Shown one piece after another: positions 22,916 through 61,009 of a DNA stretch of 64,000 nucleotides (positions are counted from its first letter, which is position 1; each line of letters begins with the position of its first letter). The position numbers and the translations under genes are program-made. The notes beneath the pieces were generated by a model. The model worked only from the letters and a program-made list of their open reading frames with translations. It was not told the origin of the DNA and did not search any database. The DNA is taken from assembly GCA_963677485.1 (NCBI GenBank), contig OY781964.1, positions 4,928,001 to 4,992,000 on the forward strand, read 5' to 3'. The stretch is from Armatimonadota bacterium (GTDB lineage: Bacteria; Armatimonadota; HRBIN16).

Positions 22916-23314
22916 TCAGTTCCTCCCAAAATAGTTGATAATCCCGCTTATGATGCCGCTCAGAATGCCGCCTAAGGTGATAACAAGCCCTATCACCTTC
23001 CACATCGTGTCAGATCCGACCTTGCTCTCAACGGCAGCATGCAGACTCGTGATCTGCTCAGCATGACGCGTAAGCTCATCGTGGATGCCGCGTACGATAA
23101 GGTCGACGTTTTCCTTGTCTGATTTCTTTTCTATCTCTCGTTCAATCTTCTCGAGCCGGTTCTGGATATCCCGGCGATGCTCCTCAAGGATCGATCTGAA
23201 CTCTGAACGCCAGGCATCAAAAGTCTTTGCAAGCATCCTTTCACTGTCCACCCATCCGCATTTGGTCGGCCCCTTACACTGGGTTTGTGTTGACACCTCC
23301 TGTATCTCACTCAT
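22916..23314 (-). CDS. coiled-coil protein with C-terminal transmembrane helix (XhlA/holin-like)
   Basis: Heptad-rich core followed by WKVIGLVITLGGILSGIISGII. Confidence 0.55.
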   Translation of the reverse strand: MSEIQEVSTQTQCKGPTKCGWVDSERMLAKTFDAWRSEFRSILEEHRRDIQNRLEKIEREIEKKSDKENVDLIVRGIHDELTRHAEQITSLHAAVESKVGSDTMWKVIGLVITLGGILSGIISGIINYFGRN

Positions 23315-24345: not shown

Positions 24346-24362
24346 GGCCCGCTTATCTCCTC

Positions 24363-24674
24363 CTACAGTCTGCGAAACAGTTCAGTTAGAATTCGGTTAA
24401 CGACTGTTCGCTCGGTCTTTTTAGGATCCACCTTAGCGACGGAATCGCGGATGGCATCTTTGGCCACACTGGTGAGAGCCGTTGACGTATCAGCGACCTT
24501 GCCTTTGACGTCCCCTGCACCCACCTGCTCAATGACACCGATCACCGTGTCCAGTGCCTGTGCTTGACCGCGTCCCCATGCGGTGATTTTCACCGTGGTG
24601 AGTAGCGAGATAAGAATCATGAGAATCATGTCCTTATGCTCGTGAAGAAAAGCTCCGATTTCGTTGGTCTCCAT
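24363..24674 (-). CDS. small membrane protein, possible holin
   Basis: One N-terminal hydrophobic helix, charged C-terminus, GAGGAGG RBS. Confidence 0.45.
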   Translation of the reverse strand: METNEIGAFLHEHKDMILMILISLLTTVKITAWGRGQAQALDTVIGVIEQVGAGDVKGKVADTSTALTSVAKDAIRDSVAKVDPKKTERTVVNRILTELFRRL

Positions 24675-24707
24675 TACCTGATTGCCTCCTCGATGTTTAT
24701 CTTGCTA

Positions 24708-35438: not shown

Positions 35439-36302
35439 TTAGGGCAGAATCTTAATCTTAGCGAGAATCTCTGGGCGGGTGATGCCCTGCCCCAGTTCCG
35501 ACCACACTAGCCAGCCCGTCTTGAAGCGGGTCTTCTGCTCAATGGCCTCGGTCTTCAGCGCCTCGCGGATGGGCATCTTACCGATCTCCTCATCGGGAAT
35601 AATCAGGATCTCATCCATGTCGGCAGACGCGGTCAGCATGATGCCGCCGGTGCCGTAGTTCTTGATCACACCCTTAGTGCGAAACTCAGCCCTGGTTTCG
35701 GGATCAAGGTCCCAGTCACGCATGTCGTTAAACCGGCGGCCACGCATCACGATAAACTTCACCGCTAGCTCCAGGTCCTCAATGATGGAGATCGCCTCGT
35801 TCAAGGCGTCATCGGTGAGCTTGCCGCCGGTGACCTCTATCGTGTTCGCGGCAGGCACCGCCTTCGAAATCACAGAGATGGTGCGCTTATCCATCTCCTT
35901 ACGGATCTCTTTTGCCGCGGATGTCTGGATATCCATAAGCGTGCCGATATTGCCGTGCTTGAGCACAGAGATGTCGACCATGGGCTCTGCGTGAATACGG
36001 TGTGTCGGGAACTCCACTTCGTCCTGACCTACCTCCTGTTCACGTGCCTCACCCTCGGTGCTAATCCAGTAGGCCTTCACCGTGGGCCGCTTCTGGTAGA
36101 CAGGACGCTCACCCGTAGGCAGCGTATGCTGGGTCAGTAGGAGCGAAGATTTCTCCTTACGATCTATCTCCTGAGCGATGGGGCCAGCGATGGCCGCGGC
36201 CAGTGCACGCATACCTTCTGGAGATTCAAGCGCCTCGCTCATAAGCCGCGCCATCGCCTCCATATACTCCTGGCTGTGAATGCTAGTCTGAGATGTGTTC
36301 AT
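35439..36302 (-). CDS. major capsid protein (HK97 fold)
   Basis: 287 aa, follows the protease/scaffold and decoration genes; A...I...MD...I spine helix and E.G..I.RP C-terminus. Confidence 0.8.
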   Translation of the reverse strand: MNTSQTSIHSQEYMEAMARLMSEALESPEGMRALAAAIAGPIAQEIDRKEKSSLLLTQHTLPTGERPVYQKRPTVKAYWISTEGEAREQEVGQDEVEFPTHRIHAEPMVDISVLKHGNIGTLMDIQTSAAKEIRKEMDKRTISVISKAVPAANTIEVTGGKLTDDALNEAISIIEDLELAVKFIVMRGRRFNDMRDWDLDPETRAEFRTKGVIKNYGTGGIMLTASADMDEILIIPDEEIGKMPIREALKTEAIEQKTRFKTGWLVWSELGQGITRPEILAKIKILP

Positions 36303-36323: not shown

Positions 36324-36686
36324 CTAAATAAGCAAGCGGTACTTAAGCGTCCCGCTCGAAATAGAGAGCGCTTGAGCGACCACTTTGTCATCCACTCCGG
36401 CGCTAGCGGCGAGCTTACCGCTCACAGCGACCTTGAGACTATCGCCTGCTGTGATGTTGCCCTCGTACACGTCGGTCTCATACACCCCGCCCATGCAGAA
36501 GATGCCGGGCATCTCGCCGTTACTGTAGTCTTTGATGAGCACTCCGAAGCTGCTGACGCTCGGGTCTGTGTTCACTGCAAACAGGTCGTTACCTACGATC
36601 TTCACGAACTGACCGCAAGAACCTGCGCCCTGCATATATCCGTGGCCATATGCTAGCCCTCGATGAGCTGCGTTAAGATATGCCAT
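36324..36686 (-). CDS. capsid decoration/cement protein
   Basis: 120 aa, Gly-rich beta, I.AGD.L.V..SGKL motif; directly upstream of the capsid gene. Confidence 0.65.
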   Translation of the reverse strand: MAYLNAAHRGLAYGHGYMQGAGSCGQFVKIVGNDLFAVNTDPSVSSFGVLIKDYSNGEMPGIFCMGGVYETDVYEGNITAGDSLKVAVSGKLAASAGVDDKVVAQALSISSGTLKYRLLI

Positions 36687-36698
36687 GTTTACTCCTCC

Positions 36699-37298
36699 TT
36701 AGTTGCCTTCGCTAGCGAGACCAACCCGCTCACGATAGGCGGCCATGAATCCGTCCCGGAGCTTATCTTCCAGGGAGGACTTCTTGTCGTCTACACTTAG
36801 GGCACGCACACCTGCGTCTGTCCTGAGTGAATGGGAAGCAGTTGCCGACGACACCGGTGGTGTCAACGCTGCCGTCTTTTCGGCCTGATCTGCTTTGTTC
36901 TCACCAGCCTGCTTTGCCGCGTTCTGGCAATCAGACCTCGACTGGATCACCCTTTCAAACGCGGCTTCGGTAGCCGCAAACGCCTCGTCGGAAAGCGCAG
37001 CCAGCCGGCTAAGTTCCTGCTCCTTATCCTCCTCAGAGCTAAACGGCATGCCGCTTCGTTCGAGCTTCTTTAGTAGCTTCTGTGCTCGTGCTTTGTTCGC
37101 CGCGGCCTTGCTCTGCGCTTCTAGGTCCTGCACCTGCTTTTGAAGCTCAAGAATCTGGTTCTTTAGCGCCTTGTTTTCGGTCTCAAGCTCCTTCACTCGG
37201 GCTTTGTCGTCAACTGGGGGCACGCCGGCGCCGGCTGGGGCCTGTTGCTTCTTTGCAGCCTCAAGCTGCTCCTCGGTGTCTTTGTGAATCTCCTCCAC
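36699..37298 (-). CDS. nested in-frame scaffolding protein (internal start)
   Basis: AGGAGG-N7-GTG in frame at codon 600, just after the protease-like domain; charged coiled-coil product. Confidence 0.6.
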   Translation of the reverse strand: MEEIHKDTEEQLEAAKKQQAPAGAGVPPVDDKARVKELETENKALKNQILELQKQVQDLEAQSKAAANKARAQKLLKKLERSGMPFSSEEDKEQELSRLAALSDEAFAATEAAFERVIQSRSDCQNAAKQAGENKADQAEKTAALTPPVSSATASHSLRTDAGVRALSVDDKKSSLEDKLRDGFMAAYRERVGLASEGN

Positions 37299-39095
37299 TA
37301 GGTTGCCTCCTGTGTTTTTGCAACTGCACTGATGCGCCTCATCTGAGGCGACTTGTGTGATTCGCGCATTTTCATCTGCTCCTTTACGGTCGAGAAGTCC
37401 GAGTCCGGTGAATGTCACTCCGTGAAGGATCTCAAACACCGGCTTACCTTGATACTCCGCACCTTTGAACTTGCGCAGGTGCGTGCAGTAGTCATTCTTT
37501 GAGCTGACCTTCGCGGCGCAGATTGAGCACTCGCCGCTCTCGTAGTCACACTCCATCGAGACCTGCGTAATGATGCCGCGTTTCATAAGCTTGTGAGCAA
37601 GCGAAGCCGTGGGTGTGTCCGCAGTAAATAACTCGCCCACGCACTCGATACGCCCGCCTGCCTCGTCATCCACGAACTCAGCGCCGATGATGCCGCCCAC
37701 GATATCAGTCAGGTCCTGCGAGTGCTTGAGGTCGATCTTCTTGTTGATAGCTGTCGAGTAGCGGGTCGATAGCTCTTCTGGCAGAAAGTGGTCCCCGTTC
37801 TTGTTGGTGCCAGCCCTGCACATCACGAAGCTAAACTGCGGGTCGCCTGCATTGGGGTTCAGGTCGATTGCTGAAGCCGACATACCAGCACCCATGGCCA
37901 TATCCACTGGGATGATGGTGTGACAGTTAGCTGCCTTAGCTAAAGGTAAACTCTGCGCCTGGGCCGACTTAACCCCCTTAGTGCAGATGAATAGCCGCTC
38001 CATGGCCACCGAGTTTTCGGAGTGCTTGGCGGAGATGCTATACTTGTGCTGACGCGACTGCATCCGGCTCTCTTTACCACTCTCCGAGATGATCTGCTTC
38101 ATCTCTACCTCGTTTGGGTAGGCATGGTCACGGTAGGAGATCAGCCAGTTCGCGATATGCTTTGCGCTCCCAAGGAACGTGCTGAAGAACTCATTGGCAC
38201 TCGCTTTGGTGACCGTCTTGTGCTCTGTGGCGTAATGGTGGGTCTTTGAATCTTCGTTAATGACCAGTCCGTCCCAGTAAGTCATAAGGCCCTCTACGAA
38301 GTGGTAACTCTTCTCATAGTTAGTCGTAGAGAACTCAGTCGCATAAGGCGGATCGAAATAGGCCAGGTCGACCTTCGCTTCCGGCAGCACCTCATTGATG
38401 TCTTTGTTAAGCGCCTTACACTCCTTTCCGTTGTCGAAGATGAGGGCGTTGATGCGTGCAATATTGTCAGAGAAGCGCTGTATGAACTCCTCTGGTGTGT
38501 CTTGCCGCTTGCCGTAGTCTGTCGAAGAAGAAAAGTGACCGAAGCCGCCCTTGCCAGACAGGCAAGTCTTACCGAGTGCAAACAGCGCGATGTCCTTCTT
38601 ATACCCTTCCAGTTTGTCTGCATTTGCTCTGATGTCATCTATAACCCCGTGCACTCCGCCTGCGAAGAATAACCCCTTGAAGTTGTCCTGGACAAAGGTC
38701 CCTGCCTTTGGGTTCTTCGCAAGCAGAGCGGCGAGTTCGTCTTCACTAATCCGCACCGCTGTGTTCTCGACGATAGCGCGAGCAGCGTGGTATGAGTAGC
38801 GCAGACGGTCGTTGGCGGTGACCTTAAGACCCTTGGTCTTGTACATGTAGGCCACCACGCCAGATCCGGAAAACGCGTCAATGACTGAGTTCACACCCTC
38901 TGGGGTATGTCTCCATATCCAGTCGATAAGCTTCTGCTTGGAGCCTATGTAGTTGGTGATGTATTTCGGTCGATCTTCGGCGGGCTGCTCCTCAGTGACT
39001 AGCTCCCCCGCTTCAGAAAGAAGCTCAAGTTGACAGGATGCATCAGCCTCAAGTAGGAAGGCCAGCCGGTCACGATCTGTTGCAAATAACTCCAT
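36699..39095 (-). CDS. fusion of N6-adenine DNA methyltransferase (D12/alpha class), prohead protease-like domain and scaffold
   Basis: NYIGSK, DAFSGSG, YFDPPY (aa ~45-370); then TNKNGD, IDLKH, VSMEC, C-x2-C..CTH, GAD..A.I (aa ~420-585); then a coiled coil. Confidence 0.85.
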   Translation of the reverse strand: MELFATDRDRLAFLLEADASCQLELLSEAGELVTEEQPAEDRPKYITNYIGSKQKLIDWIWRHTPEGVNSVIDAFSGSGVVAYMYKTKGLKVTANDRLRYSYHAARAIVENTAVRISEDELAALLAKNPKAGTFVQDNFKGLFFAGGVHGVIDDIRANADKLEGYKKDIALFALGKTCLSGKGGFGHFSSSTDYGKRQDTPEEFIQRFSDNIARINALIFDNGKECKALNKDINEVLPEAKVDLAYFDPPYATEFSTTNYEKSYHFVEGLMTYWDGLVINEDSKTHHYATEHKTVTKASANEFFSTFLGSAKHIANWLISYRDHAYPNEVEMKQIISESGKESRMQSRQHKYSISAKHSENSVAMERLFICTKGVKSAQAQSLPLAKAANCHTIIPVDMAMGAGMSASAIDLNPNAGDPQFSFVMCRAGTNKNGDHFLPEELSTRYSTAINKKIDLKHSQDLTDIVGGIIGAEFVDDEAGGRIECVGELFTADTPTASLAHKLMKRGIITQVSMECDYESGECSICAAKVSSKNDYCTHLRKFKGAEYQGKPVFEILHGVTFTGLGLLDRKGADENARITQVASDEAHQCSCKNTGGNLVEEIHKDTEEQLEAAKKQQAPAGAGVPPVDDKARVKELETENKALKNQILELQKQVQDLEAQSKAAANKARAQKLLKKLERSGMPFSSEEDKEQELSRLAALSDEAFAATEAAFERVIQSRSDCQNAAKQAGENKADQAEKTAALTPPVSSATASHSLRTDAGVRALSVDDKKSSLEDKLRDGFMAAYRERVGLASEGN

Positions 39096-39144
39096 TTATC
39101 TCTCCCCTGCAGATTGAGGGTGATTATCATACCCCTCCACTTGA

Positions 39145-39176
39145 TATTTACGCGCGAAAAATGGAAAGTGTCGGAA
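39145..39176 (-). promoter_or_regulatory. element-specific promoter, copy B
   Basis: TTCCGACACTTTCCATTTTTCGCGCGTAAATA, 49 bp upstream of the MTase-protease start. Confidence 0.75.
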
Positions 39177-39284
39177 ATGGGCTTTTGAGGGGTTTTCGGG
39201 CCGATATTGCTGCCATTTCGAGTGATTGAAGCGGTATTATGGTATCAGTGACGTGACCATGTGGCGTCTGAATGGGGCATTTTG

Positions 39285-39302
39285 ACACTAATTAATTAGT
39301 GT
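39285..39302. promoter_or_regulatory. perfect 18-bp palindrome ACACTAATTAATTAGTGT, operator-like
   Basis: Core CTAATTAATTAG recurs at 63606 and, with 2 mismatches, at 59537. Confidence 0.6.
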
Positions 39303-39517
39303 ATGATGGATTTCAACACAGCCGGATCACCTCTCTTAGAGAGCAGGTTCAGGGTCATAGATTACTCCCCATATTACGATGGACAGAGTAATCAGGTAAA
39401 CTGTGAACATAAAGGCAAAACATTTAAATGAACATATGCAGGTACCGGGCTAACACCGAGCCAAACGTCCGGGCCAAACGTCCGGTGAGCAGTGTTCAGA
39501 ATGGAGTGAATTCATAT

Positions 39518-39838
39518 ATGGATGCAAGTTCATTACCAGAGGGTGGACGGTGGTCTTGTCGCCGTAAGCTGGAGATCGTGCAGCGCATTATTGCTGGCGA
39601 ACCTATAGAAGACGTATCGATGCATATAGGCGTGCCGATTAGTCAGCTTGAAGACTGGCGAGACAAAGCGCTTGCCGGCATGGAAGCGGCTCTGAAGACA
39701 CCTGTTGAGAGCTTAGTAGATCATCAGCTCAAAGTGGCACAGAGGCGTATCAGCGCGCTGTCTATGGAGAATGAACTGCTTTACGAACGCTGCCGCCTGA
39801 TCGACCGCCCTTTTCCCCAGGGGAGGTCGCGAAAATGA
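39518..39838 (+). CDS. IS3-family OrfA-like HTH protein
   Basis: RWS.RRK.EIV.RI..GE.I..VS...GV....L..WR HTH, then zipper MENELL. Confidence 0.75.
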   Translation: MDASSLPEGGRWSCRRKLEIVQRIIAGEPIEDVSMHIGVPISQLEDWRDKALAGMEAALKTPVESLVDHQLKVAQRRISALSMENELLYERCRLIDRPFPQGRSRK

Positions 39839-40209
39839 GCGCTGCAATCTCCCCTTCAACAAATGCTCGCTACGGGGTAGAACGGGTGTGCCGAGTATGG
39901 GAACAACCCCGCTCCACTTACTATTTAAAGACCACAAGAGTGGTTAAGGTTGCTTCCACCACACCAAAACTGAAGCGTGGGCCAAAGACCGTAATTTCCG
40001 ATGAGGAACTATTAGGTGCCATCCAGAAGGAGATTGAAAGCTCACCCTCAAAGGGTAATAGCTACATGAGAATATACGATTCACTTCACTTCGGCCCGCA
40101 GAAATTACGAGTGGGCAAGAGCCGTGTGCTTCGTCTGATGCGTAAATATGAGTTATTTACCACTTCGCAGGTAACGGGCAGAGTGTATACTGATGCAGAT
40201 ACAGATTAA
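39835..40209 (+). pseudogene. IS3-family OrfB N-terminal fragment lacking the DDE core
   Basis: YGV.RVCRVW..PRST.Y, RGP....SDEELL..I, RV.K.RVLRLMR, then a stop before any integrase core. Confidence 0.7.
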
Positions 40210-41062
40210 GAACACGAACGATGTAGTTATTGTTTCAGGGGAATACCCAAATATGAAGGCTGCCGTGCATGCGAGTAGGGACAGTTTACAAGCTGCCAAC
40301 CTGACGGGTGCCGACTTGTCACATACGGATCTGGACGAGGCCAATCTACGTGGTGCCAAACTGGAACACGCTAATCTTGAAGCTGCTCAGCTATGGGGCG
40401 CTAGTCTTCAAGGGGCCGACCTGACAAAGGCGAATCTTAAAGGTGCCAAGCTAATCAGAGCCAATCTGACCGGGGTTAATCTGAGCAGTGCCAATCTGCA
40501 CAAAGCCAATCTGAGTAATACAGATCTAGTGAATGTCTGTCTGCAAGACGCCAATCTGAGTGAGACAAACCTAACAGGGTCTAACCTAAGTGGTGCTAAT
40601 CTGGCGGGGGCAAACCTGAGCGGCACGTGGATGAATTTCACCACACTGTCCGGTGCTGATTTACACGGTGCTAATCTGAGTGGTGCCCAACTCGAAGATG
40701 CCAAACTCACTGGTGCCAATCTTACTGACGCAAACCTGGAAGGTGCCCATCTGTCTAGCACTGATCTACAAGACGCCAATCTGAGCAGATGCAGTCTCAA
40801 ACATGCCATACTAAATGGAGCTAATCTTACCAAAGCCAATCTAACTCATGCTAATCTGAGCAGTGCCGACCTTACTAGTGCCAAGCTTACTGATGCCAAT
40901 CTAGACGGCGCTAATCTGGAAGGTGTAAATTTGTATCGGGCTCATCTAGACCGCGCCAATACGATCTTAATCAAGCGGTTAACACAGGCTGCTGAGAAGG
41001 AAGCTGAGAAGCAAGCTGAGAAGCAAACTGAGAAGGAAACCAATGTCACGCCCACTTTTTGA
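40193..41062 (+). CDS. pentapeptide repeat protein
   Basis: More than 40 consecutive A(N/D)Lxx repeats. Confidence 0.95.
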   Translation: MQIQIKNTNDVVIVSGEYPNMKAAVHASRDSLQAANLTGADLSHTDLDEANLRGAKLEHANLEAAQLWGASLQGADLTKANLKGAKLIRANLTGVNLSSANLHKANLSNTDLVNVCLQDANLSETNLTGSNLSGANLAGANLSGTWMNFTTLSGADLHGANLSGAQLEDAKLTGANLTDANLEGAHLSSTDLQDANLSRCSLKHAILNGANLTKANLTHANLSSADLTSAKLTDANLDGANLEGVNLYRAHLDRANTILIKRLTQAAEKEAEKQAEKQTEKETNVTPTF

Positions 41063-41107
41063 CGTGATAAAGTGCAGTCCATATAAAGGAAGACAGGCAA
41101 TGATCTT

Positions 41108-41584
41108 ATGCAGGTAGAAATTCGGATTATAAGCGGGGCGGTTATAGTTTCAGGAGACTACCCGGATATGAAGGCCGCGGTGCAAGCTAACAAAGACAAG
41201 CTACGCACCGCTAGTCTAGCAGGTGTCGACCTGTCCCATGCAGATCTGAAAGGCGCATTTTTGCGTGATGCCTGTCTGAAGGGTGCCAATCTGCAACATG
41301 CCGATCTTCAGACCGCGGTTCTTTGCAGATCAAGCCTGGATGGTGCTAATCTGACAGGGGCCAACCTACAAGGTGCCGATCTGAAGGGTGCGGATTTAAC
41401 TCATGCGGATCTGAAAGGTGCCAATTTGTGTTATGCGGATCTGCGAGATGCGGACCTGACAGGTGTCAAACTAAGTGGTGCCGTTCTAAAGGATGTGAAG
41501 CTGCGCGGTGCGAAGTCGCATAAAGTCAGGTTTTGCTATTATTGGTTTGCCATCACGTCATTCCTGCGCCTTATGAGGTCATAA
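41108..41584 (+). CDS. pentapeptide repeat protein (paralogue)
   Basis: About 20 A(N/D)Lxx repeats; N-terminus VIVSGDYPDMKAAV matches the upstream gene. Confidence 0.93.
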   Translation: MQVEIRIISGAVIVSGDYPDMKAAVQANKDKLRTASLAGVDLSHADLKGAFLRDACLKGANLQHADLQTAVLCRSSLDGANLTGANLQGADLKGADLTHADLKGANLCYADLRDADLTGVKLSGAVLKDVKLRGAKSHKVRFCYYWFAITSFLRLMRS

Positions 41585-41710
41585 GGGTGAGACACTTTCG
41601 ACACGCCTAACTCTATATGGCGGATATGCATCAACGCTGTTCATGTAGAGGCAGATATGCTTAAGACCAAGACGCTGCTTACCGCCACGACCATGTAATA
41701 GTCACCGTGC

Positions 41711-42046
41711 TCATAGCCTCGATAACCCACCAAGCACACGCGCGGCACATTCCTCAGCTGTCGCGTATTCATCTGTAATAGTGATCTCCCCACGCATGCC
41801 CCGGTACGGTGACATCGTCGCGCGGTGATACGCCAGGAAGCCTTCTGGCAGCGTCTTCACCCCGTTCTCAACAAGTCTATTGAGCACCCAGTCCGCATCC
41901 TCCTGCGCCTCCGCGTTACCAGGCAGATACTCCATCACGATATCAAGCCCAGCGCCATACCCCTGCACCCACACACCTATGGGCTCATAATGGGGGCTGG
42001 TGTCCCGGTCGCGTAGCGTAAATTCCGTCATATAACTCAGTCTCAT
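41711..42046 (-). CDS. small acidic protein, candidate immunity protein 2
   Basis: ATGA-coupled to the upstream gene; second gene after the MuF toxin-like gene. Confidence 0.55.
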   Translation of the reverse strand: MRLSYMTEFTLRDRDTSPHYEPIGVWVQGYGAGLDIVMEYLPGNAEAQEDADWVLNRLVENGVKTLPEGFLAYHRATMSPYRGMRGEITITDEYATAEECAARVLGGLSRL

Positions 42047-42513
42047 TGCCACCCCTCCGCCATAGCGATATGCTCCTCAAGAAGCTGTGCATCTATTTGT
42101 TCAAACAGTATTGCATTAGCCGCTTTGTATTTCTGCCAGTTTTTCCAGTCTGCAAGCAGAGCCAGGTCCTGGTTCGGGCAAAGCAGCTCGATATGATACC
42201 TGCGGCTCCGGTCGTCGGTGACGTCCAGCATGTAGGTATCGTCCTGGTGCCAAGCTATTACCTTGATCGTGTGCGCATATTGCCAGCCGTTATTGTAGCC
42301 AGCCGACTTAAACAGCAGCCAGAAGTCGGTGCTTGTGATGTTTCCCGCCGCATCAAAGTGAGGTGCCACACGTGTGACGGTGTAGCTGTCGATTAGGCCA
42401 AAGCCCAGCGCCTCGTGCTTGTCCTCATTCATCTCCGTCCAGGAGCCTTGACTATTGAACTTCTCGAAGAGCCCCTGGAGCCGCGCCTTCAGCTCCGTGA
42501 TGATCTCATTCAT
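42043..42513 (-). CDS. small acidic protein, candidate immunity protein 1
   Basis: GGAG RBS, starts 11 bp after the MuF stop. Confidence 0.6.
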   Translation of the reverse strand: MNEIITELKARLQGLFEKFNSQGSWTEMNEDKHEALGFGLIDSYTVTRVAPHFDAAGNITSTDFWLLFKSAGYNNGWQYAHTIKVIAWHQDDTYMLDVTDDRSRRYHIELLCPNQDLALLADWKNWQKYKAANAILFEQIDAQLLEEHIAMAEGWQ

Positions 42514-42524
42514 ATTTTGTCTCC

Positions 42525-45500
42525 CTACCTCTCTAACACGATCTGTTCTATTTTGCGGCCGTCGGGCAGCACAGAAATGCCGTGCTTCCTAAATACGTCA
42601 AGCACTCTCGTTCTCTCCTGGGAGCCGCGCACTACGATGCTTTCTAGGTTATCAAGCAGCGTGACCGAGTATTTCAGTATAGTCTCGTTGCCTGACTTAC
42701 TTGAGAAGCTCTTCCATGCCTGTGGATCCGAGCCGCGGTTCTTTGCGACGTAGTCGTCCTTCACTTTACCGAAGGCATCATGGCTGTAGCTTATCGCGTC
42801 CATACGCCTCAGCAGCTGCTTCTTAAAATAGAGCCCCGTCTCCCCTGTTGATGCCGTTGGGGTCTTCTTAATACGCGTGAAGACGTAGCTGGCTCCCCCG
42901 CTATTCATGTCCGATTCGGGGGACATCCCACCAGGAGCTATCCCCGCTCGTAGTTTTTCGACAGTGCTAATCATGGCTCCGTTGTTTTCCAGAACGGTGT
43001 CAAGAAACGAGCTGATGTTCTCACCGTTTGTGAGGCTGTGATGTAAACTGTAGCCCTTCATTTCACGTTCCATATCTGTGTCCGAGATGTCGAAGCGGTA
43101 CTGCTGCCTGTAACCGCCACGCGTGGCACTATCTTTGAATCCAAGCTGATACCGCCCTACCGGGTCATAACCAGGTAGCTTTGTAATATCTGGAGCGCCA
43201 AGCCTGTGCTCCCAGTAGCCGCGCATCGCCTGCACGCGCTCAGTCTTTGTGGCGTTACGACCGTCAAGATCAGAGAGTAGCTGGACATACGCAGGCTCCG
43301 TGTCTGCCTTAGTGACATAAGCCTGCTTTGCTAGATACAGGGCTTCAGAATCCTCGGCAGTGGCAATGTTAGCCTTTACTCCGAGCTTCTCCATGTGCCC
43401 CAGTGCCTTCTCTAAACTTCTCGAATCGGCGTTATTAGGCAGCACAATCTCAAACTCGCCCTGCTGAGCGTAGTGGTTCTTATCTGACCACGGGCGATAT
43501 ATCGCGTGAGTGCCGTCACCGAAGTCTATCTCATACTGCTCACCGTCTAGCATCGAGCGGTTACGAAAGAGCGATGAGTTATCTGCTCCGTCTTGATCAA
43601 CCGAAAGCTCCCCCCGGCTGAGTGTTCGCTTTGTGAGCAGCACCTTTGTTTTCTTCACAGTGTAACCCAGCTCTTCTACCCGCTTCCTAGAAGCAGTATG
43701 CTGCCTTGTATAAGCAGAGAACACGTCGGGGATCTTTTCCCGCTGCTCTACCGACTGCTTTACTCTCTTAAGCCAGGTGATATAACCTTCGGCCATGGCC
43801 TTCACGTCCGGGTCATCTGACTTCGATAGCATTCTCAGAGCATCAAGATGCTTGACTGCCTTATCTATACTCGCCTGGTTATAGGCACCGTCCTGGGCAT
43901 GGTGGTTTACGCTCTTCACCGCAGCGAGGATGTCGGAGGAGAAGCTGTCCTCCTCAAGTAGTTCACCTAGTTTTGGAGCGGTAGTCTGACGATCTGCCTT
44001 CTTTAGAGCCGGCAGTATCTTCAGCTCTGCCTCCGGTCTCAGTTTCATCTTCACCACAGTGCGCGTTTGAGAGTTCACCGTCTCCGTAAAGATAAGAGCG
44101 TTCTGGTCCTCTATGTCACTCTCATCAATGGGTAGTGCTTTACCTTGCCAGCCAAGCTTTCGCGCATCCTCAATCATCTGCTCCTCAGCTTTACCTATGC
44201 GGCCAGCTTTTGGTAGTGACGGCCCGTCTTCAAACCGGAAGCCAGGTTTAGAAAGAACATCTGAATAGAATCCCTCGAAGTTGCTGCGCAGACTATGCTT
44301 TCGCTCGATTGCCAGCTTACTAAACGCCTTCTTCTGGGCGTCAGTGGCAAAGCGTCCCTCCACGTAGGGACGCAGCAGCTCCAGGTAGTCATCATCTGAG
44401 ATGCGCTCTACTTCGCGAATATACCTTAGTGTGACGGAGGGATCAACTGCAACCTTCCCCTGTTTGGCTGCTCTGAACAGCGTGTTATAAAACGGCTCCT
44501 GTTCTCCGCAGGCACCGTTAGGGTGGTAGTCAACAGAGAGTGTGTCTGAGCCGAGGAACTTGGATAGCTGCCCCTTGTCGATGCCGTATACCTTACCGGA
44601 TTTCGCTCTCAGAAACTGCTTGGAGTGGCCGTCATGATTTGAGATGAGCCAGTCAATCACATGCTCACGCTGCACCTGCGATATTTCGTCTGGGGTGAGA
44701 TCACGCGCGTCAAAGCCGGAGAAGTCATACTTTGCAGCTAGATCACTGCGCCATTTCTGGATCGAACCTATGCGCCCGTTGAGACGGATTGTCCGCACCT
44801 CAACGCAGTCGGGGTCTATTAATCTCGCAAGCTTGTAAGCAGCCTCTTCGCCGCGAGCAATGAAGTCGTCTGAAGTGCTGCCTACTGGCTTGAATAGCCA
44901 CTTTTCACCGTTCTGGTCGGTCCAAAACTCCTTCTCATGCGCGCCACCGACCTTAGCTTTACCCTCATACTTGAACTTCTCGGGCTTCCCCATCTCTGAC
45001 CACGCGGAGTCAACATCGAAGAACTCCGAACCCTTCTTAGAAAACGCTGAGGGTGACGCGGTGGTGACGGTCTGCGTGATGGGGTCTGGCTCCGTCTTCG
45101 TTTTTGCAGCTGGGGTTATCGGCTTAGAGGCCTTAACGGAAGCGGACTTGTTCTTTTCGGCCCACTTGGCATGTTTAGCTGCTATGCTATTTTTCGCAGC
45201 ATCTATTTTAGTTTGATCGGTCTCCGTAAACAGCGTGGTCAACTCATCTTTATTAGCCCACTGCCAGTGCGTAAGCTTTGCCTGCTTCGCTGTCTCCTTT
45301 AGGTCACTGGACTTCATGGCAGAAATCTGCTGAGCGAATGTGTGCTTCTTGAGTGCGATTTCCTTTGCGTGCTGCTCTATCACCGCCGCAGGTAGCCCAG
45401 AATCTTTAGCAAGCTGCGTTTCGGCGGCGGACACCGAACTTAGGAAAGATTGATACCCCGCAGGAGAGGACGGCATCACTACCTGCGCCGTGGCTTCCGT

Positions 45501-47120
45501 TAGCGACTGCTCCGCCTTTTTCAGAGCCTCTGCCTTTGCTCCGCTTAGTGCCTGCTGCTTGGCCTGCTCCGCCATCTGCTGACCCGCCGCCTTCTCCAGC
45601 GCTTTTGCTAGCTGCTGCTTGTTCTTAAGCGGAGGGATACCATATTTCTGCTTGGCGGCCAAAAGCATTTGGCCGGATAACCCGCTGTGGTCGATATTTG
45701 GTTCAAGGGTGTCGAGTATCTCGATCACTTCAGACTTTGTGAGGTTGAGTGAGACGCTGTGTTGTTTTGCCATCTCCTTAAGCTGCACTGTCGTTAGTCC
45801 TGACAGGTCTGAGCTTGGCGCCACAAGTTTAGCGGCCTCCTCAAGTGCCTTCGCCTGCTTGAGCGCGGCCTGCTTAGCAGCGAGCAGTTTTACGAGGTCA
45901 TCTTTGCTGCGAAGCGCAGCGATGTTGTATTGCTTGATTTTCGCCTGCAGCGCAGCACCGGAGAGGTCCCCGTGATCCACGCCAGGTTCAGCTACTCCAA
46001 GCAGATGAATGAAGTCAGCCTTAGTGCGGGCCACGCCAATGCCGTTTGCCTTGGCGAGTGTCTGAAGCTGCTTTATAGTAAGCGCGGAGAGATCCGCAAC
46101 CTGACCAGAATCAAAAGCGGACTTAAGCTTCTTCTCTTCTTCCACCTGCTTCTTAGCCTGCTCCTCTATCGCCTGTGGTGGGAGTATGCAGGCAGTCGGC
46201 TCTTCTGCGGCACTCGCTCCAAGTTCACCCCCGCAGACCACAAGCGGCCATGCAGGCAGTGTTGAGCACCGGCAGTTTGGATGCGCAGGTTGACTGGGAA
46301 AGCGGTCCGTATCAAACTGCTTGCCGTCAAGCGCCCCGCAGACAGGGCACATTCGCTCATCTTCCATCGTCATCCACTCTGTCTTTGTCACACCGACCTG
46401 CTGGTGAAACTTAATACGCCCCTGGTTATGCGCGCGCAGCAGTTCTGTGCGAGCGATCATCTCCATGCGGTACTGCGCTTTAGAGAACACCTTACTCCCC
46501 GCGTGGCGGAAAGATTGTTTGTCATCTATCACGCTGCCCATGTCACGGACGATCTCACTTGCACTCTTTCCAGTAGCTATCCCGGCGAAGATGGTCTTCT
46601 TAATGCCGTCTGAAAGCTCCCGGTGCACGTCCCCCGCGAGCACCAAGTTGTAGTTCGCCATAAAGCCAAGCGCATCGGTGTCGATGAGCGTGAACACTGA
46701 GGTAGTGAGTTTGTCAATGCCGCTCGGTGTGAGCTCTTTATAAATCGGCATCTGAGCGGAAGCGAACTCCTCTATCCCGTGATACACCCCTGAGCGAAAG
46801 GATGCGTTACTAGCGCTTTTGAACATAAGGGTCTGCTCACGCTCCAGAGATTTTAGCAGTCCCCCTATCTCGCCGCTTAGCTTCTCAAGACCCAATTTGG
46901 CTGCCAGCTTATTACCGGGTAGCGTCCCGAGTTGCCCGAAGCCTAAGATAGCACTAGATACCAACTTCTGAGCCGATGCGAGTGACTGCTTAAGCCCCAT
47001 CACCACCTGGCTCACATATAGATCGCGGCTAAGCAGGCTTTTATCAGTCGCTTTACGAATGGCCTGGGATTGCGAATTCACATCCGCGATAGCACACAGT
47101 GAAGGCGGTGGAGTATTCAT
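42525..47120 (-). CDS. MuF (SPP1 gp7-like) minor head protein with HeH repeats, HipA/PI3K-like kinase and putative ART-like C-terminal domain
   Basis: IARTE..RA.N.G, DER.CP.C..LDG, P.HPNCRC; WLFKP..EEAAY..GSIQ..DWLISNHDGH..IDKG; start at TGATG overlap with AGGAGG. Confidence 0.85.
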   Translation of the reverse strand: MNTPPPSLCAIADVNSQSQAIRKATDKSLLSRDLYVSQVVMGLKQSLASAQKLVSSAILGFGQLGTLPGNKLAAKLGLEKLSGEIGGLLKSLEREQTLMFKSASNASFRSGVYHGIEEFASAQMPIYKELTPSGIDKLTTSVFTLIDTDALGFMANYNLVLAGDVHRELSDGIKKTIFAGIATGKSASEIVRDMGSVIDDKQSFRHAGSKVFSKAQYRMEMIARTELLRAHNQGRIKFHQQVGVTKTEWMTMEDERMCPVCGALDGKQFDTDRFPSQPAHPNCRCSTLPAWPLVVCGGELGASAAEEPTACILPPQAIEEQAKKQVEEEKKLKSAFDSGQVADLSALTIKQLQTLAKANGIGVARTKADFIHLLGVAEPGVDHGDLSGAALQAKIKQYNIAALRSKDDLVKLLAAKQAALKQAKALEEAAKLVAPSSDLSGLTTVQLKEMAKQHSVSLNLTKSEVIEILDTLEPNIDHSGLSGQMLLAAKQKYGIPPLKNKQQLAKALEKAAGQQMAEQAKQQALSGAKAEALKKAEQSLTEATAQVVMPSSPAGYQSFLSSVSAAETQLAKDSGLPAAVIEQHAKEIALKKHTFAQQISAMKSSDLKETAKQAKLTHWQWANKDELTTLFTETDQTKIDAAKNSIAAKHAKWAEKNKSASVKASKPITPAAKTKTEPDPITQTVTTASPSAFSKKGSEFFDVDSAWSEMGKPEKFKYEGKAKVGGAHEKEFWTDQNGEKWLFKPVGSTSDDFIARGEEAAYKLARLIDPDCVEVRTIRLNGRIGSIQKWRSDLAAKYDFSGFDARDLTPDEISQVQREHVIDWLISNHDGHSKQFLRAKSGKVYGIDKGQLSKFLGSDTLSVDYHPNGACGEQEPFYNTLFRAAKQGKVAVDPSVTLRYIREVERISDDDYLELLRPYVEGRFATDAQKKAFSKLAIERKHSLRSNFEGFYSDVLSKPGFRFEDGPSLPKAGRIGKAEEQMIEDARKLGWQGKALPIDESDIEDQNALIFTETVNSQTRTVVKMKLRPEAELKILPALKKADRQTTAPKLGELLEEDSFSSDILAAVKSVNHHAQDGAYNQASIDKAVKHLDALRMLSKSDDPDVKAMAEGYITWLKRVKQSVEQREKIPDVFSAYTRQHTASRKRVEELGYTVKKTKVLLTKRTLSRGELSVDQDGADNSSLFRNRSMLDGEQYEIDFGDGTHAIYRPWSDKNHYAQQGEFEIVLPNNADSRSLEKALGHMEKLGVKANIATAEDSEALYLAKQAYVTKADTEPAYVQLLSDLDGRNATKTERVQAMRGYWEHRLGAPDITKLPGYDPVGRYQLGFKDSATRGGYRQQYRFDISDTDMEREMKGYSLHHSLTNGENISSFLDTVLENNGAMISTVEKLRAGIAPGGMSPESDMNSGGASYVFTRIKKTPTASTGETGLYFKKQLLRRMDAISYSHDAFGKVKDDYVAKNRGSDPQAWKSFSSKSGNETILKYSVTLLDNLESIVVRGSQERTRVLDVFRKHGISVLPDGRKIEQIVLER

Positions 47121-48658
47121 CAGGCCTCCTTCATGCGCAGAAATCGGCACGCTGGGGTATCAAAGCTCACATCTGCCGACGACACACTACACATGCTGCT
47201 GGGTTCATAGAAGTAACCACACTCGTCGCAGAGTTTGCCGGCATATGACGCCTTCGTAAGCAGGCCGTCCCAGTTCGCAGTGGCCCCGGAGCCAACAGGG
47301 TTCTTCGCCGGGTCTAGTCCAAGCATCTGCTGAGCGGTCTCTATGCTCATAATCCCGGCTACCACCATATCCACAATGGGCTTCACCTGCTTCTCGTCTA
47401 GCAGATCCGCGGACTTTCGTTCGTTCTGGCGATTACCTTCCTCTATCTCAGGGTTCAGATCCATCTTCATCTGCAAAGACGAACGGCTGATGAGCTTTCG
47501 GTCATACAGTTCTATGAGCAGCTTTTTGAAATCCACGGCGTCCGTGGGGTCAAGATCATTAAACAGATACTGGATGCTCTTGCCAGAATGGCCCGCAAGT
47601 TCCAGCCAGTCGGAGTAGATCCAGTCGAGTATCTCGCGGGCCGAATGGGTGATCTCCCTAATCATGACAAGCATCTTCTGCATACTCACAGAGGCTGTCG
47701 CAAAGTTAGGCCCGTCACCTGACACGAGCGAACGAGAAAGTCCCTGGGCGACAACGATGTCTTCCTTCACCTCCTTGACCTTGTCTTCCACGTTTAGCAC
47801 CTGACCCTCGGTGCCGTGCGTTTCGACAGATACATAAAATGGCACAATCATGCCGCTTTTCATGTCCATGTTGTTCATCAAGTCACGCACCTGCTCAAGC
47901 ATCTTCTGATCTGGCATGATCATGCGCTGCTTGAACTCACCGCCCACCTTGATAAACCGGAGCGGCGTGGCCCAGCGCTTAGCGATAGCCTGTTCGGCGC
48001 GCCGGTAGTCACGCAGCAGCTCAATGGACTGGAAGGCCGGAAGCACAAGCGAATTACCTCGCGGTGAGAACTCCGGTGCGTCCCATTTTAGATGTATCGT
48101 CTGCTCCACCGGCAAGGTGATGCCCTCTGCCCCGTTTTGAGCATCATCGGCGTACTGCTTGACTTCTATTAGCTCACCCTGCGAATACTTCACTTTCACA
48201 GATACCGGGTTCACGCAGGTAATCTGTTCGATATCCCGTCCGTCTTTGCTGTAGCGCTTAAAGCCGACCGCGTCCCCCTTAACAAGAAGCTGCAAGATCA
48301 TATCTTTCACAAACCGCGGGATGCGCAGCTGCTTGGCCAGCTCATTTGCTTCAAGTTTCACATGTTCGTCGTCGCTTGTTATCTTCACCTCATCACCCAC
48401 AGAGAAGGTGCGCCATGAGTTCACGCAGTTCTTCACAAGCGGTTCCTCTGTGTAGTATTCCCAGGCCTTCCTTGCCCGGTCTTCCCACGATGCGGGTATG
48501 GCGTCATTCGCACTCACGGCACCAAACGCAGAGGAGCCGAGTGCAGCCATGGTCGCCAGCGGCGTCACTACCTGGCCATATGCCGAGGTGTCCCCCGCCT
48601 CAACTGCGCTGGTATCAGTTATTACCGTGTCATTAATCATCGTGTCGTTATTCACCAT
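47120..48658 (-). CDS. portal protein
   Basis: 512 aa between terL and MuF; L..GDA, NP.SV.V, IHLK......PRG.S...PAF. Confidence 0.8.
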   Translation of the reverse strand: MVNNDTMINDTVITDTSAVEAGDTSAYGQVVTPLATMAALGSSAFGAVSANDAIPASWEDRARKAWEYYTEEPLVKNCVNSWRTFSVGDEVKITSDDEHVKLEANELAKQLRIPRFVKDMILQLLVKGDAVGFKRYSKDGRDIEQITCVNPVSVKVKYSQGELIEVKQYADDAQNGAEGITLPVEQTIHLKWDAPEFSPRGNSLVLPAFQSIELLRDYRRAEQAIAKRWATPLRFIKVGGEFKQRMIMPDQKMLEQVRDLMNNMDMKSGMIVPFYVSVETHGTEGQVLNVEDKVKEVKEDIVVAQGLSRSLVSGDGPNFATASVSMQKMLVMIREITHSAREILDWIYSDWLELAGHSGKSIQYLFNDLDPTDAVDFKKLLIELYDRKLISRSSLQMKMDLNPEIEEGNRQNERKSADLLDEKQVKPIVDMVVAGIMSIETAQQMLGLDPAKNPVGSGATANWDGLLTKASYAGKLCDECGYFYEPSSMCSVSSADVSFDTPACRFLRMKEA

Positions 48659-48939: not shown

Positions 48940-50466
48940 CTAGTAAAATATCGGGTTAGTCAGCACAGGCATTAGACACACCATCTGCTCATTCGCTGCC
49001 TCAAGTGAGCCGTGCTCATGCATAAGCACCGCGCATCGCACCGCATCGATGATATGGTCATTACCCTTGGAGTAGATGATATTGCCGTTTGAGAGTGTGT
49101 AAGTATGGGTAGTAAACTGGTCCTCTATCTCGGGGTCATTTACAGGCAGGATAAGCTGCCGTCTTTGCAGGGCACCGGTAATGAGTGTGGTCATCAGCTC
49201 CTTGGTGCGCTTTCGCATCTCACGTCCGTCCCTCACAGAGAGTGTAGTCACACCTCCAAAATCATAGCCGCGTAACCGGCCCTCAAGCTGCATCGGTTTG
49301 TATTTATCAAGTGTCAGCAGCTCTTGAACTACCGCAAGGCCGTTGCCTCCGTTGTCGAGGCCTATCCCGACAGGGGTGAAGTAGCGCTCGAGTAGCGAGA
49401 TAACCTGAGAGATATGCGGATACGTCACATGCTCAAGATGCACGCGCAGAACCATTGAGAGCACGGACCGCTCACCCTGCGGCACCTCCTGAAACACCAC
49501 AATCTCCGTGGGGTCATTTGTATATCCAAGGTCACCGCCCATCCAGAACACCCCGGTCTGCGGCATAAGATTAAGAAGCATCTCAAGCCGGTCATACGAC
49601 TCCTCTTCGGTTTGGCAGCTCCTGATGTCTTCGCCCATGATAGATATCTTCTGGTATTCGATGATTTCCTGTCTGCATAGGGTTAGAACGTCTATGTTAA
49701 ACACACCGTATGACGGCTTACCGTGCTCCCCGGCTACCTCATGCTGCCAGCCAGCGGTCTGCTTACCTCCATAGAACTCAATCAGCTCTGCCTCGCGTTC
49801 GGCGTTCCAGGCAGGGTTAAGCCAGGACGGCCAGCGGAACACTTTGAACTGATCTGAGCTGGTCAGCCTGTAGTAAGTGGTGTCCCTTAAGCCGTTAGGT
49901 GTCGAATAGATACGCAGCGTGCCACCAGCCTTGAGGCACTGTCGAAGCGCCTTCCATGCTTTTTCGGTTAGCCAGGCACCCTCATCAACCCAGACCCGCT
50001 CAACGTGCAGCGAACGAAACGCGTCGCCATATGTACCGGCAGGCCGGAAGTAGAGAATAGAGCCGTTAGAAAACTCAATTCGGAAGTATGGCTTACGGAA
50101 AATTTTGGGTTTTCCATATTTTGTGATGCCAATACTCGCTGAAAGCTCTGGGCTCGAATCTATCTGAAACTCGATCTCCTCGGCGAGAGCGTCGAGATGC
50201 CCCTGGTGGGGGGTGGCAATAAGCCCCTGGCCGCCTCGTTTGGTGAATGCGAAATGCAGCGCATCTGTAGTCAGCGAAATAGACTTACCGGAATCACGGC
50301 CATCTAGGTGGATGATGTTGCGATCCTTACAGTTCATATCCTCAATCTGGTGAGGCCAGTATCCCCGCGCAGAACCGTCCCGGTTTTTAAGGTAATGCTC
50401 ACCAAATGACACAGGATCCCGTAATCGCTTTACAATTTCATCTTCGGAGGAATTTGTATTAGTCAT
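48940..50466 (-). CDS. terL: terminase large subunit
   Basis: GRDSGKS Walker A, VWVDE Walker B, STPNG, GGDLG...DPT and DHIIDA nuclease motifs. Confidence 0.92.
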   Translation of the reverse strand: MTNTNSSEDEIVKRLRDPVSFGEHYLKNRDGSARGYWPHQIEDMNCKDRNIIHLDGRDSGKSISLTTDALHFAFTKRGGQGLIATPHQGHLDALAEEIEFQIDSSPELSASIGITKYGKPKIFRKPYFRIEFSNGSILYFRPAGTYGDAFRSLHVERVWVDEGAWLTEKAWKALRQCLKAGGTLRIYSTPNGLRDTTYYRLTSSDQFKVFRWPSWLNPAWNAEREAELIEFYGGKQTAGWQHEVAGEHGKPSYGVFNIDVLTLCRQEIIEYQKISIMGEDIRSCQTEEESYDRLEMLLNLMPQTGVFWMGGDLGYTNDPTEIVVFQEVPQGERSVLSMVLRVHLEHVTYPHISQVISLLERYFTPVGIGLDNGGNGLAVVQELLTLDKYKPMQLEGRLRGYDFGGVTTLSVRDGREMRKRTKELMTTLITGALQRRQLILPVNDPEIEDQFTTHTYTLSNGNIIYSKGNDHIIDAVRCAVLMHEHGSLEAANEQMVCLMPVLTNPIFY

Positions 50467-59818: not shown

Positions 59819-61009
59819 GTGAAAGGACACCAACAATTGGCCAACTTTAACCTTCACCGTTTCTCAAATCCCGGCGCGCTAAAGTCCATCTCCAGCGAGC
59901 ATCTCATCGCTTTTCTATCTCCCTACGAAGACTTCCTGCGTTCTAGAGGTCTTGAGATTCCGAGTGACACCTCTGTAGTGGACAGCTTCCCATATGCCGC
60001 GCTGCTGCAAATTCTCATGACCCCTGACGCGGGTATGCCCAAAGAGCTAATTGAAGCCCTCTACTTCGTGCACGAAATGGCCACAACAGAGGGCATGGAT
60101 ACACTTCTTGCCGCTGCACAGCTCGCAGGTATTACACTTGACAACAGTCCTGATGCCACGCCGATCGATGTGGCTATACAGGTCTGGCTCTGCGCAAGAG
60201 AGATACTCGAATCAAAACATGCTGAGCAGCTACTTGTAAAGGCAAGAACATTCGAGTATTACCAGGCCACAAGAGGGACAGTTGCGGTATTCCCTACTCC
60301 AAATGCTGAGGCCATCACCCAGCTGCAGAATGACCTGGATTCATGGTTTGTCGTAAAGAAGCGTGGACCTGGCACCCGGGTGTTCTGTTTCCCGCGTGAT
60401 GATGCTATCTGGTTCATCGTGAGACATGGTGAGCCGTATAAGCGTGAAGGCAGCATGGAGGCAGGCGAATCCTCGAGCGTGTTCTACCGCCCCGAAAAGC
60501 ATGACGTGATTGTCTACCAGTCGGAAGCGGCGGAGCTGCGGATAAACGCCGGTACAAAAGGCGAGAAGGAGCTATACCGCAGACTAATTGGTTCGCACCT
60601 GTTTGGTAGTGAAGACCACTTCCCAGGGAAGGGCAAATACAGCCTTGATCCGCTAAAGTATGACGGTGAGGCTTCTACGGTCTGCTCGGACGTGGCTGGT
60701 ATCGAGTGGGTGAAACTCAAAGAGGTGCAGTTCCTATGGGGTGGTGCTTACGAGTATGTCGAAGTCTGGAAAGCCGCGGACATCTTCGCGGTGCTGCGTA
60801 GCAGGGGAAAGTCAATTCCCCAGGCTGCACGGATAATAAAGGCCAGTTTCTATGTGAAGTTCGAAGATTCTAAGACGCCTCGCACGGTGTCAGTCCGGCC
60901 ATCTAATATCGCCCAGTTCCAACGAGACGGTGATGGTGAACTCGTGGAAGCATGGCTGCGTGTGCGTGGTTTTGTAATAACGCCTGGGAATGATGATGAG
61001 ACAGAATAG
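59819..61009 (+). CDS. hypothetical protein
   Basis: 396-codon ORF, divergent from the replication operon; start may be TTG at 59837; no family recognised. Confidence 0.75.
   Translation: MKGHQQLANFNLHRFSNPGALKSISSEHLIAFLSPYEDFLRSRGLEIPSDTSVVDSFPYAALLQILMTPDAGMPKELIEALYFVHEMATTEGMDTLLAAAQLAGITLDNSPDATPIDVAIQVWLCAREILESKHAEQLLVKARTFEYYQATRGTVAVFPTPNAEAITQLQNDLDSWFVVKKRGPGTRVFCFPRDDAIWFIVRHGEPYKREGSMEAGESSSVFYRPEKHDVIVYQSEAAELRINAGTKGEKELYRRLIGSHLFGSEDHFPGKGKYSLDPLKYDGEASTVCSDVAGIEWVKLKEVQFLWGGAYEYVEVWKAADIFAVLRSRGKSIPQAARIIKASFYVKFEDSKTPRTVSVRPSNIAQFQRDGDGELVEAWLRVRGFVITPGNDDETE

Follow-up and report, generated by a model that had tools for sequence, protein, structure and literature searches.

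The 64,000-nucleotide stretch examined here (the window) comes from the genome of an Armatimonadota bacterium (GTDB lineage HRBIN16; assembly GCA_963677485.1, contig OY781964.1, positions 4,928,001 to 4,992,000) and contains the head module of a contractile-tailed prophage, in which two head-assembly proteins carry enzymes as fused passengers. Read along the minus strand, the module comprises genes for terminase, portal, a fusion of the minor head protein MuF, two small proteins, a methyltransferase (MTase)-protease-scaffold polyprotein, a small head protein and the capsid protein; on the plus strand, a remnant of an IS3 element and two pentapeptide-repeat genes separate the small genes from the MTase gene. 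An initial annotation had reported MTase, kinase and putative ADP-ribosyltransferase (ART) passengers in the two head proteins; all three are present, look intact and reside in the genes to which they had been assigned.

The polyprotein (798 residues; 36699..39095, this and all following coordinates being window positions on the minus strand unless stated otherwise) opens with a leader closed by two predicted processing motifs (residues 15-19 and 25-29, 39009..39053), which recur in 10/10 and 8/10 dereplicated homologues. It continues with a D12/Dam-class N6-adenine MTase domain (37971..39008; PF02086, E 1.3e-25; PADLOC type II MTase, E 1.5e-53), a further predicted motif parting the MTase from the protease (residues 405-409, 37869..37883; found in 104/111 database homologues), a prohead serine protease domain resembling gp19 of Bacillus phage G (37341..37868) and, at its C-terminal end, a coiled-coil scaffold. 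This scaffold is also encoded as a nested gene (36699..37298) with an in-frame GTG at 37298 and an AGGAGG ribosome-binding site, and its last helix is preceded by another predicted motif (residues 757-761, 36813..36827; 10/10 and 12/13 homologues). The S-adenosylmethionine-binding motif I, motif IV and the PF02086 domain are all present in the MTase, the D12-class match spanning residues 49-262 with DAFSGSG at 73 and DPPY at 248 intact, and the nearest solved relatives, both weak, are Dam and DpnM. The protease domain is homologous to phage G gp19 (33% identity; hhalign 98.9%, E 2e-17), matches the PHROG head maturation protease (E 1.5e-4) and carries H458 and S513, the conserved His and Ser motifs being kept in 73 of 74 reading frames. 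Pfam and PHROG scans found no helicase domain in the polyprotein, and no cognate restriction endonuclease gene occurred among the scanned module genes; the few restriction-modification cassettes in relatives are variable inserts that bring their own MTase. Families in PHROGs already contain both the polyprotein and the MuF protein, one labelled only as methyltransferase and one as unknown.

Searching with the protease part returned 442 proteins of 438-1397 residues; the MTase Pfam label was carried by 112 of the best 120 of these matches, and the other eight start within the MTase. A protease-anchored genome scan confirmed 147 relatives, of which the closest 80 were examined. The MTase lay 5' of the protease in 72 of the 73 loci with at least 1.5 kb of upstream sequence, the lone exception also being devoid of terminase, portal and MuF. 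The nested scaffold start and its ribosome-binding site were found in 77/78 loci (ATG in 66, GTG in 7 and TTG in 4), compared with an in-frame start before the protease in just 5/76, at differing positions (3 of 81 loci were skipped in this count of internal starts). Because the scaffold start is conserved and the protease start is not, free scaffold is probably produced separately and in large amounts, for which lambda Nu3 provides a precedent, and the protease probably solely as a fusion to the MTase. Tandem double MTase domains, approximately 40% identical to one another, occur in 31 of 74 reading frames (the window has one domain), and such relatives often carry an insert of approximately 85 residues bounded by the processing motif; the tandem arrangement may reflect an enzyme for both strands of an asymmetric site, in the manner of M.FokI. 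Elsewhere, gp13 of Gordonia phage Stormageddon (9845-13114 of locus L004) is a 1,089-residue protein headed by a homologous protease domain, the rest of which has no Pfam match.

The predicted processing sites share the motif [LMIF]-x-[ASTC]-x-A. After sequences more than 90% identical had been merged, 69 sites at six polyprotein boundaries had L, M, I or F at P5 (69), A, S, T or C at P3 (69) and Ala at P1 (66). The motif also lies near the N-terminus of the portal protein (47120..48658; 15/15 dereplicated homologues) and at two places in the MuF fusion, closing its leader (residues 18-22, 47085..47099; 15/19 homologues, shuffle mean 4.8) and, at a single offset, after the MuF core (residues 310-314, 46209..46223; 16/19 dereplicated homologues, shuffle mean 5.8, maximum 13 of 5000). 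Four internal linkers of MuF that were tested hold it in 0, 2, 0 and 0 of the 19 homologues, MuFs that carry this ART in other phages hold it at chance (3/29 versus 3.3 shuffled), and short MuFs stop just past the core, ahead of the motif site. Sites in the capsid protein were set aside as uninformative, given the near-invariant sequence around them. The motif is likely the cleavage site of the prohead protease; herpes assemblin, which has the same fold, cuts after Ala. Processing at these sites could plausibly release the MTase and the protease as separate products, along with a single fragment that holds SAP repeats, kinase and ART. The proposal of the initial annotation that the protease frees the cargo domains is made likely by the boundary motif, but only in a narrower form, with one predicted cut past the MuF core and none between the enzymes.

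The same layout could be explained if the fusion were a late expression device, the MTase being cut off or staying cytoplasmic before packaging and never entering the virion. Late methylation of progeny DNA would bring the same anti-restriction benefit, and the motif does part the MTase from the protease and has one site inside the second MTase of tandem forms, as if for cutting up. Against such a device, an unfused late gene would do the same more simply, the strict motif is not conserved anywhere inside the first MTase, and the scaffold tail should pull the whole chain into the prohead. Every intact locus, moreover, retains the fusion, whether with a single MTase or with two, these domains and the optional insert each being bounded by the motif, and we consider an MTase that never reaches the virion improbable.

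The MuF fusion, listed at 1541 residues (42525..47150), likely starts at the ATG at 47120, which overlaps the portal stop and has AGGAGG upstream. Its core is the portal-associated minor head domain (46236..46973; PF04233, E 6.6e-16; TIGR01641 above cut-off), followed by SAP/Rho-N-type helical repeats (45141..46118; SAP in 16/18 and Rho_N in 15/18 homologues) that are predicted to tether nucleic acid. A HipA-like kinase domain comes next (44226..45008), with GGAHEK, K754, NHDGH..Q and IDKG; of the HipA-type features it has the glycine-rich loop, the Lys, the catalytic HDGH and the Asp that binds metal, with an invariant Gln where HipA has Asn. Of 32 aligned sequences, 31 gave a HipA_C match, at best with E 1.5e-5; the window itself scored 23.4 bits, below the curated cut-off of 30.5, and a profile search with this domain reached no solved kinase structure; sequence and profile searches of solved structures were likewise of no use for the MuF and protease proteins, the SAP region and DUF4417 (a plasmid neighbour considered below). 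Beyond the kinase lies a domain of approximately 360 residues that travels with the ART (43116..44198), its N-terminal part being detected in 88 of 115 long homologues and the kinase in 64. In this pre-ART domain a Glu is invariant and an IEDQ motif conserved, and a fold search gave no clear match, with a weak Z of 5.6 to a mimivirus RNA triphosphatase.

The fusion ends in the ART itself (42528..43115), with an H-Y-E triad at H1371, Y1422 and E1489. The 557-residue C-terminal unit of pre-ART domain and ART was modelled confidently (predicted local distance difference test, pLDDT, 95.9), and in a fold search of 48,161 solved chains only four reached a Z of at least 8 with the whole model, all of them DarT1 or DarT2 (Z 10.8, 10.7, 10.6 and 10.0). 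These alignments covered 145-156 residues at a root-mean-square deviation of 3.3-3.5 and 9-13% identity, the next ART scored 6.3, and Foldseek also ranks DarT first, but at E 0.019. The triad, assigned through residue order and secondary structure without superposition, is conserved in 116 (H), 121 (Y) and 122 (E) of 122 sequences, and R1401, 21 residues before the Tyr, in 120/122, a spacing like that of R51 and Y71 in DarT2, also not superposed. Clustered at 50% identity, relatives of the last 342 MuF residues number 1,022, and nearly all of them form the end of a long protein. In its model the terminal domain is DarT-like in fold, bearing out what the initial annotation had suggested, and it is outside the Pfam DarT family, whose model gave no match at E<=0.1.

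That Pfam result, together with the low identity, the deviation and the Foldseek value, would also suit an ART that modifies protein or RNA, either for host takeover in the manner of T4 Alt or as a weapon against non-lysogens. Two further points lean the same way: the small genes downstream have no macrodomain or NADAR family match, and characterised MuF ARTs such as Bxa modify proteins, according to the accessible part of the source (PMC11699363). Conversely, DarT1 and DarT2 are the sole enzymes to pass the Z threshold, the piece that would be released bears SAP/Rho-N repeats, and the Arg-Tyr spacing resembles that of DarT2. A protein or RNA target is possible on this evidence, if on the unlikely side.

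Co-occurrence was counted over the 61 loci with a visible MuF core, 19 of the 80 having been dropped on account of a contig end, an insert or a deletion. In 51 of these loci the kinase and the ART occur together with the two small genes; from the other 10 all four are missing, one of the 10 retaining a scar of the second small gene. The MTase was kept in 61/61, with catalytic motifs intact in all 10 cargo-less loci. Recurrence of the full architecture in 51 of 61 informative loci means that it is not a product of chance. A quick tree needs 7 changes in the cargo, at least 6 of them forced by strong branches and some falling between near-identical sisters, and the natural cargo-less sister phages are 91-95% identical over aligned DNA. 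The initial annotation had named co-occurrence of the two fusions across homologous prophages as a check on their coupling, and the answer is unfavourable, the MuF cargo having been lost repeatedly from loci that keep the MTase. The cargo-less MuFs that were read have 210-534 residues and end in or ahead of the SAP repeats. There was no toxin exchange among the 61 loci, which have the same cargo or none, and distant MuFs with the same ART differ in their middle domains.

The two small genes follow the cargo directly. The gene for a 156-residue protein (42043..42513), present in all 51 loci with cargo and absent from all 10 without, begins 11 bases past the MuF stop and overlaps the gene for a 111-residue protein (41711..42046), which has the same distribution; the pair is translationally coupled. 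A complex model of the ART unit with the 156-residue protein scored 0.88, the best of three controls scoring 0.00; of 157 solved complexes 116 attained this mark, as did 2 of 215 mismatched pairs. Runs agreed in at least 95% of contacts, and the partner had a pLDDT of 90. The predicted interface takes in the active-site cleft, lying over H1371 and over the loops that flank Y1422 and E1489. Sequence searches gave no solved relative for either partner, which makes a score owed to memorised structures less likely. Because the 156-residue protein is predicted to plug the ART active site, it would protect the producer cell, and its gene is predicted to behave as an immunity gene for the ART. Distribution and elimination point to the 111-residue protein as a candidate antidote, and it probably restrains the kinase. 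Its model (pLDDT 89.8) gave Z scores of 3.3, 3.2, 3.1 and 2.6 to HipS and the HipA N-subdomain, no higher than unrelated rows, and its fold search found nothing above Z 3.7, with macrodomain and NADAR entries unlisted, which does not exclude them. Homologues of the small genes, 40 and 41 in number, gave no Pfam match to macrodomains (DarG) or NADAR, the 156-residue protein not having been fold-searched, and the ESM Atlas held no match for either protein. The small genes answer to the candidate immunity genes that the initial annotation placed between the fusions; the pentapeptide-repeat genes that it read as DNA mimics belong to an unrelated insert and occur in 0 of the 80 related loci.

Outside the clade, the cargo keeps other company. 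Phage Pan1 (19024-24682 of locus L093) has a MuF-ART, and neither this protease nor the MTase was found in it by annotation or profile. It is the only cultured phage found with this ART, and it encodes an annotated 7-deazaguanine pathway. The mycobacterial prophage McProf has a MuF-kinase with a different ART and a head module with no protease gene. On 29 large actinobacterial plasmids, kinase and ART are adjacent genes flanked by two small genes, and head genes were absent from 8/8 plasmid loci read. In six of these eight the pair adjoins ParB and DUF4417; in a seventh, from Euzebya, it adjoins DUF4417 without ParB, a cytosine MTase gene lying downstream; and in the eighth it adjoins neither. 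On Streptomyces plasmids it adjoins a relaxase, ParB and DUF4417. Tests of DUF4417 showed no link to the Pan1 transglycosylase, and the family could not be tied to base modification. A by-eye likeness had suggested that the plasmid small genes are homologues of the window pair; this was rejected, as all profile-profile comparisons were negative (probability 3% or less). The co-loss in 10 of 61 loci, Pan1 and the plasmids together indicate that the cargo travels with the small genes and not with the MTase.

These distributions bear on the coupled system proposed in the initial annotation, whereby adenine methylation marks phage DNA as self and an injected DarT-like enzyme modifies only host DNA. 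Every cargo-bearing locus does have the MTase (51/51), the immunity protein would not yet have been made in a newly infected cell at injection, and outside the clade the ART is found in elements that have DNA-modification genes (the 7-deazaguanine pathway of Pan1, and plasmid ParB/DUF4417, with DUF4417 in 7/8). Such neighbours amount to three anecdotal cases with no control, however, and the idea of a methylation shield fares poorly elsewhere: the MTase stays intact in the cargo-less loci, Pan1 has the ART with no annotated MTase or MTase-profile match, and a dedicated active-site plug is predicted. In addition, characterised DarTs modify thymine or guanine in single-stranded rather than double-stranded DNA, as the accessible part of the source has it (PMC11543638), a poor match to N6-adenine marks, and TNTC is not depleted in the prophages by word statistics. 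We regard a coupled system as very unlikely.

We favour instead, at a probability of roughly 60%, two independent modules sharing one maturation route, namely a fixed, protease-processed anti-restriction MTase and an optional MuF toxin-immunity cassette. From the architecture and its conservation, the nested start, motif placement, fold, co-loss and predicted binding, all computed here, we infer a course of cleavage, packaging and ejection, together with enzyme activities, targets and an anti-restriction role, as follows. In the fixed module, the protease would be made only as a chain of leader, one or two MTases, protease and scaffold, and the scaffold tail would bring this chain into the prohead beside many free scaffolds from the nested start. 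The protease would then cut after the Ala of the motif, freeing itself and leaving an MTase of approximately 380 residues in the head, where it could methylate the packaged or just-ejected genome against the restriction of the next host. In the optional module, MuF would anchor at the portal and one cut would free a SAP-kinase-ART piece of approximately 1,225 residues, which may cling to DNA and be ejected with the genome as an early effector. In the producer cell, the 156-residue protein would block the ART and the 111-residue protein probably restrain the kinase.

Several points weigh against this interpretation. The motif was spotted by eye in homologues before it was tested, it is short (0.4-0.9 occurrences per 100 residues in these proteins), and, with homologues that share kinship, the shuffle counts cannot be read as probabilities. 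Conserved copies also occur at five non-head control places (terminase 2, neck 1, tape measure 2), at one place within a SAP repeat and at the one site in the second MTase, which lies in an internal loop; the seven closest database MuFs have it in 4/7, with a shuffle mean of 2.3 and maximum of 7. With the closest 80 of 147 relatives examined, unfused proteases may exist further out, as in phage G, and a search for shorter forms gave 66 matches, mostly on small contigs, of which 24 were aligned and are fragments or frameshifts by their look. The presence of the MTase in all 51 cargo-bearing loci is what a one-way dependence would also give, and the tree, a quick one only, left out 6 of the 61 loci, each of these 6 lacking one intact marker. 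Lastly, word statistics of the prophages yield no target for the MTase.

The 71 labelled loci fall in 12 host phyla. A Zixibacteria chromosome (3.98 Mb) matches a Desulfosarcinaceae contig (2.97 Mb) at 99.0% identity within a head-tail region of approximately 20.5 kb, and over about the same length Syntrophus and a Nitrospiraceae bin share 97.4% identity and Desulfosarcina and a Verrucomicrobiota bin 97.1%. Most of these records are metagenome bins whose junctions were not read, so that mis-binning is possible; the non-bin records are from Thermodesulfobacteriota, plus one from Kiritimatiellota. Genomes of Desulfosarcina, Desulfofustis and Syntrophus carry members, the window's nearest relatives in a quick tree are Armatimonadota records, and one Bryobacterales chromosome holds four copies. 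A bolder version of our interpretation would have a phage that crosses phyla, a self-processing head with an Ala-specific protease that releases all internal cargo and loads every capsid with one or two MTases, which methylate the genome while it is being packaged or once it has been ejected, a virion-borne DNA-directed ART and kinase, and a new type of active-site immunity protein; taken as a whole, we think it rather doubtful.

The prophage spans approximately 11-59 kb of the window and has a GC content of 50-58%, as opposed to 36-38% in the adjoining polysaccharide genes. Host-like genes lie on both flanks, relatives sit in contigs of megabase size, and no integrase was identified within the 64-kb window. 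The remaining head genes are those for the terminase large subunit (48940..50466; PHROG terminase, E 7e-24), an HK97-fold major capsid protein like phage G gp27 (35439..36302) and, 5' of the latter, a small head protein that is probably a decoration protein (36324..36686; gene order as for phage G gp26, weak PHROG head match). At the right end (59819-62072, plus strand) are two long open reading frames of 396 and 360 residues with no Pfam or NCBIfam match. The word GTAC is rare in the prophage (11099-59121; 0.27 of expected), and CTAG is rare throughout the clade (0.25-0.33 of expected). The plus-strand insert consists of a truncated IS3-family element (39428..40209) and two pentapeptide-repeat genes (40193..41062 and 41108..41584), each of the three being absent from the 80 related loci. 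The pentapeptide proteins are generic repeats under the Qnr and MfpA family cut-offs, and they were rejected as part of the system. The gap 5' of the MTase gene in which they lie (39096-41710) is an accessory hot spot, exceeding 400 bp in 22/67 loci and housing AbiE, restriction-modification, dGTPase and AriAB-like genes, as well as a reverse-transcriptase/Avd cassette, iron uptake and efflux genes (in loci L017, L036 and L059, respectively).

In the literature searched we found neither an MTase-prohead protease polyprotein nor DarT-fold MuF cargo nor this prophage family described, although supplement tables of PMC5512222 and PMC9503650 may list fusions and subscription journals were outside the search. 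For the question of how MuF toxins act and leave the capsid, the family offers cargo-less sisters along with a cut site and an immunity complex, both of them predicted, and an MTase hard-wired to an essential protease-scaffold may be a route for loading enzymes into capsids. A capsid-loaded MTase is also a candidate reason for 20-kb regions that are 97-99% identical across phylum labels. The ART, meanwhile, would add phage and plasmid cargo to the host-defence setting of the DarT fold.

Several parts of this arrangement have known counterparts. As far as the accessible portions of the sources go, small immunity genes are established companions downstream of MuF toxins (PMC5576092, PMC11699363, PMC3482391), and enzyme fusions to MuF, portal and a capsid-processing peptidase (Nudix), as well as head-packaged ARTs, have been described (PMC9503650, PMC5512222). 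Like the MuF polymorphic toxins (Jamet 2017; Bxa, Apk2), the fusion reported here directly follows the portal and has a C-terminal enzyme, with small downstream genes that vanish with it, the immunity protein in this case being predicted to block the active site. Unlike them, it combines two enzymes and DNA-binding repeats in a single chain, its cargo is present or absent and never swapped in the 61 loci, and it belongs to a myovirus-type prophage outside Firmicutes and Bacteroides. Its ART is DarT-like, unlike the R-S-E type of Bxa or McProf gp54. It shares with DarT1 and DarT2 the fold, with DarT2 the H-Y-E triad, and a catalytic Glu kept in every sequence, but stands on a head protein behind an extra domain, with no DarG or NADAR gene and no Pfam match. 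The kinase resembles HipA and HipBST kinases through the weak HipA_C match and differs in its predicted link to the virion, with a partner that is weakly HipS-like.

For the polyprotein, one parallel is DarB of phage P1, a head-packaged MTase with an anti-restriction role in the accessible text of PMC9024508 and PMC5512222. Both would carry an adenine MTase domain in the head, where it is proposed to counter restriction in cis. In DarB the MTase is joined to an SF2/SWI2 helicase and an N-terminal sequence targets the protein to the capsid, whereas a Dam-class MTase with no helicase is carried here on a protease-scaffold. Bacillus phage G has a homologous protease and capsid protein (33% and 31% identity) and a small gene before the capsid gene. 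Its gp19, named as the head maturation protease in the part of PMC12484599 at hand, is by contrast a stand-alone protein of 300 residues with no MTase and zero copies of the motif, and the phage G group has divergent head peptidases, as far as the available text of PMC7824862 indicates. Prohead proteases that cut several head or ejection proteins at one short motif are known from what is accessible of PMC5694885, and those of T4, phiKZ and SPN3US, as here, have one such motif at propeptide or domain boundaries of several head proteins, the protease included. They cut after Glu (A-X-E in SPN3US), whereas the motif here, which is predicted only, ends in Ala. Ultimately, we conclude that this head module joins a known kind of MuF toxin-immunity module to an MTase-prohead protease polyprotein that is, as far as found, previously undescribed.

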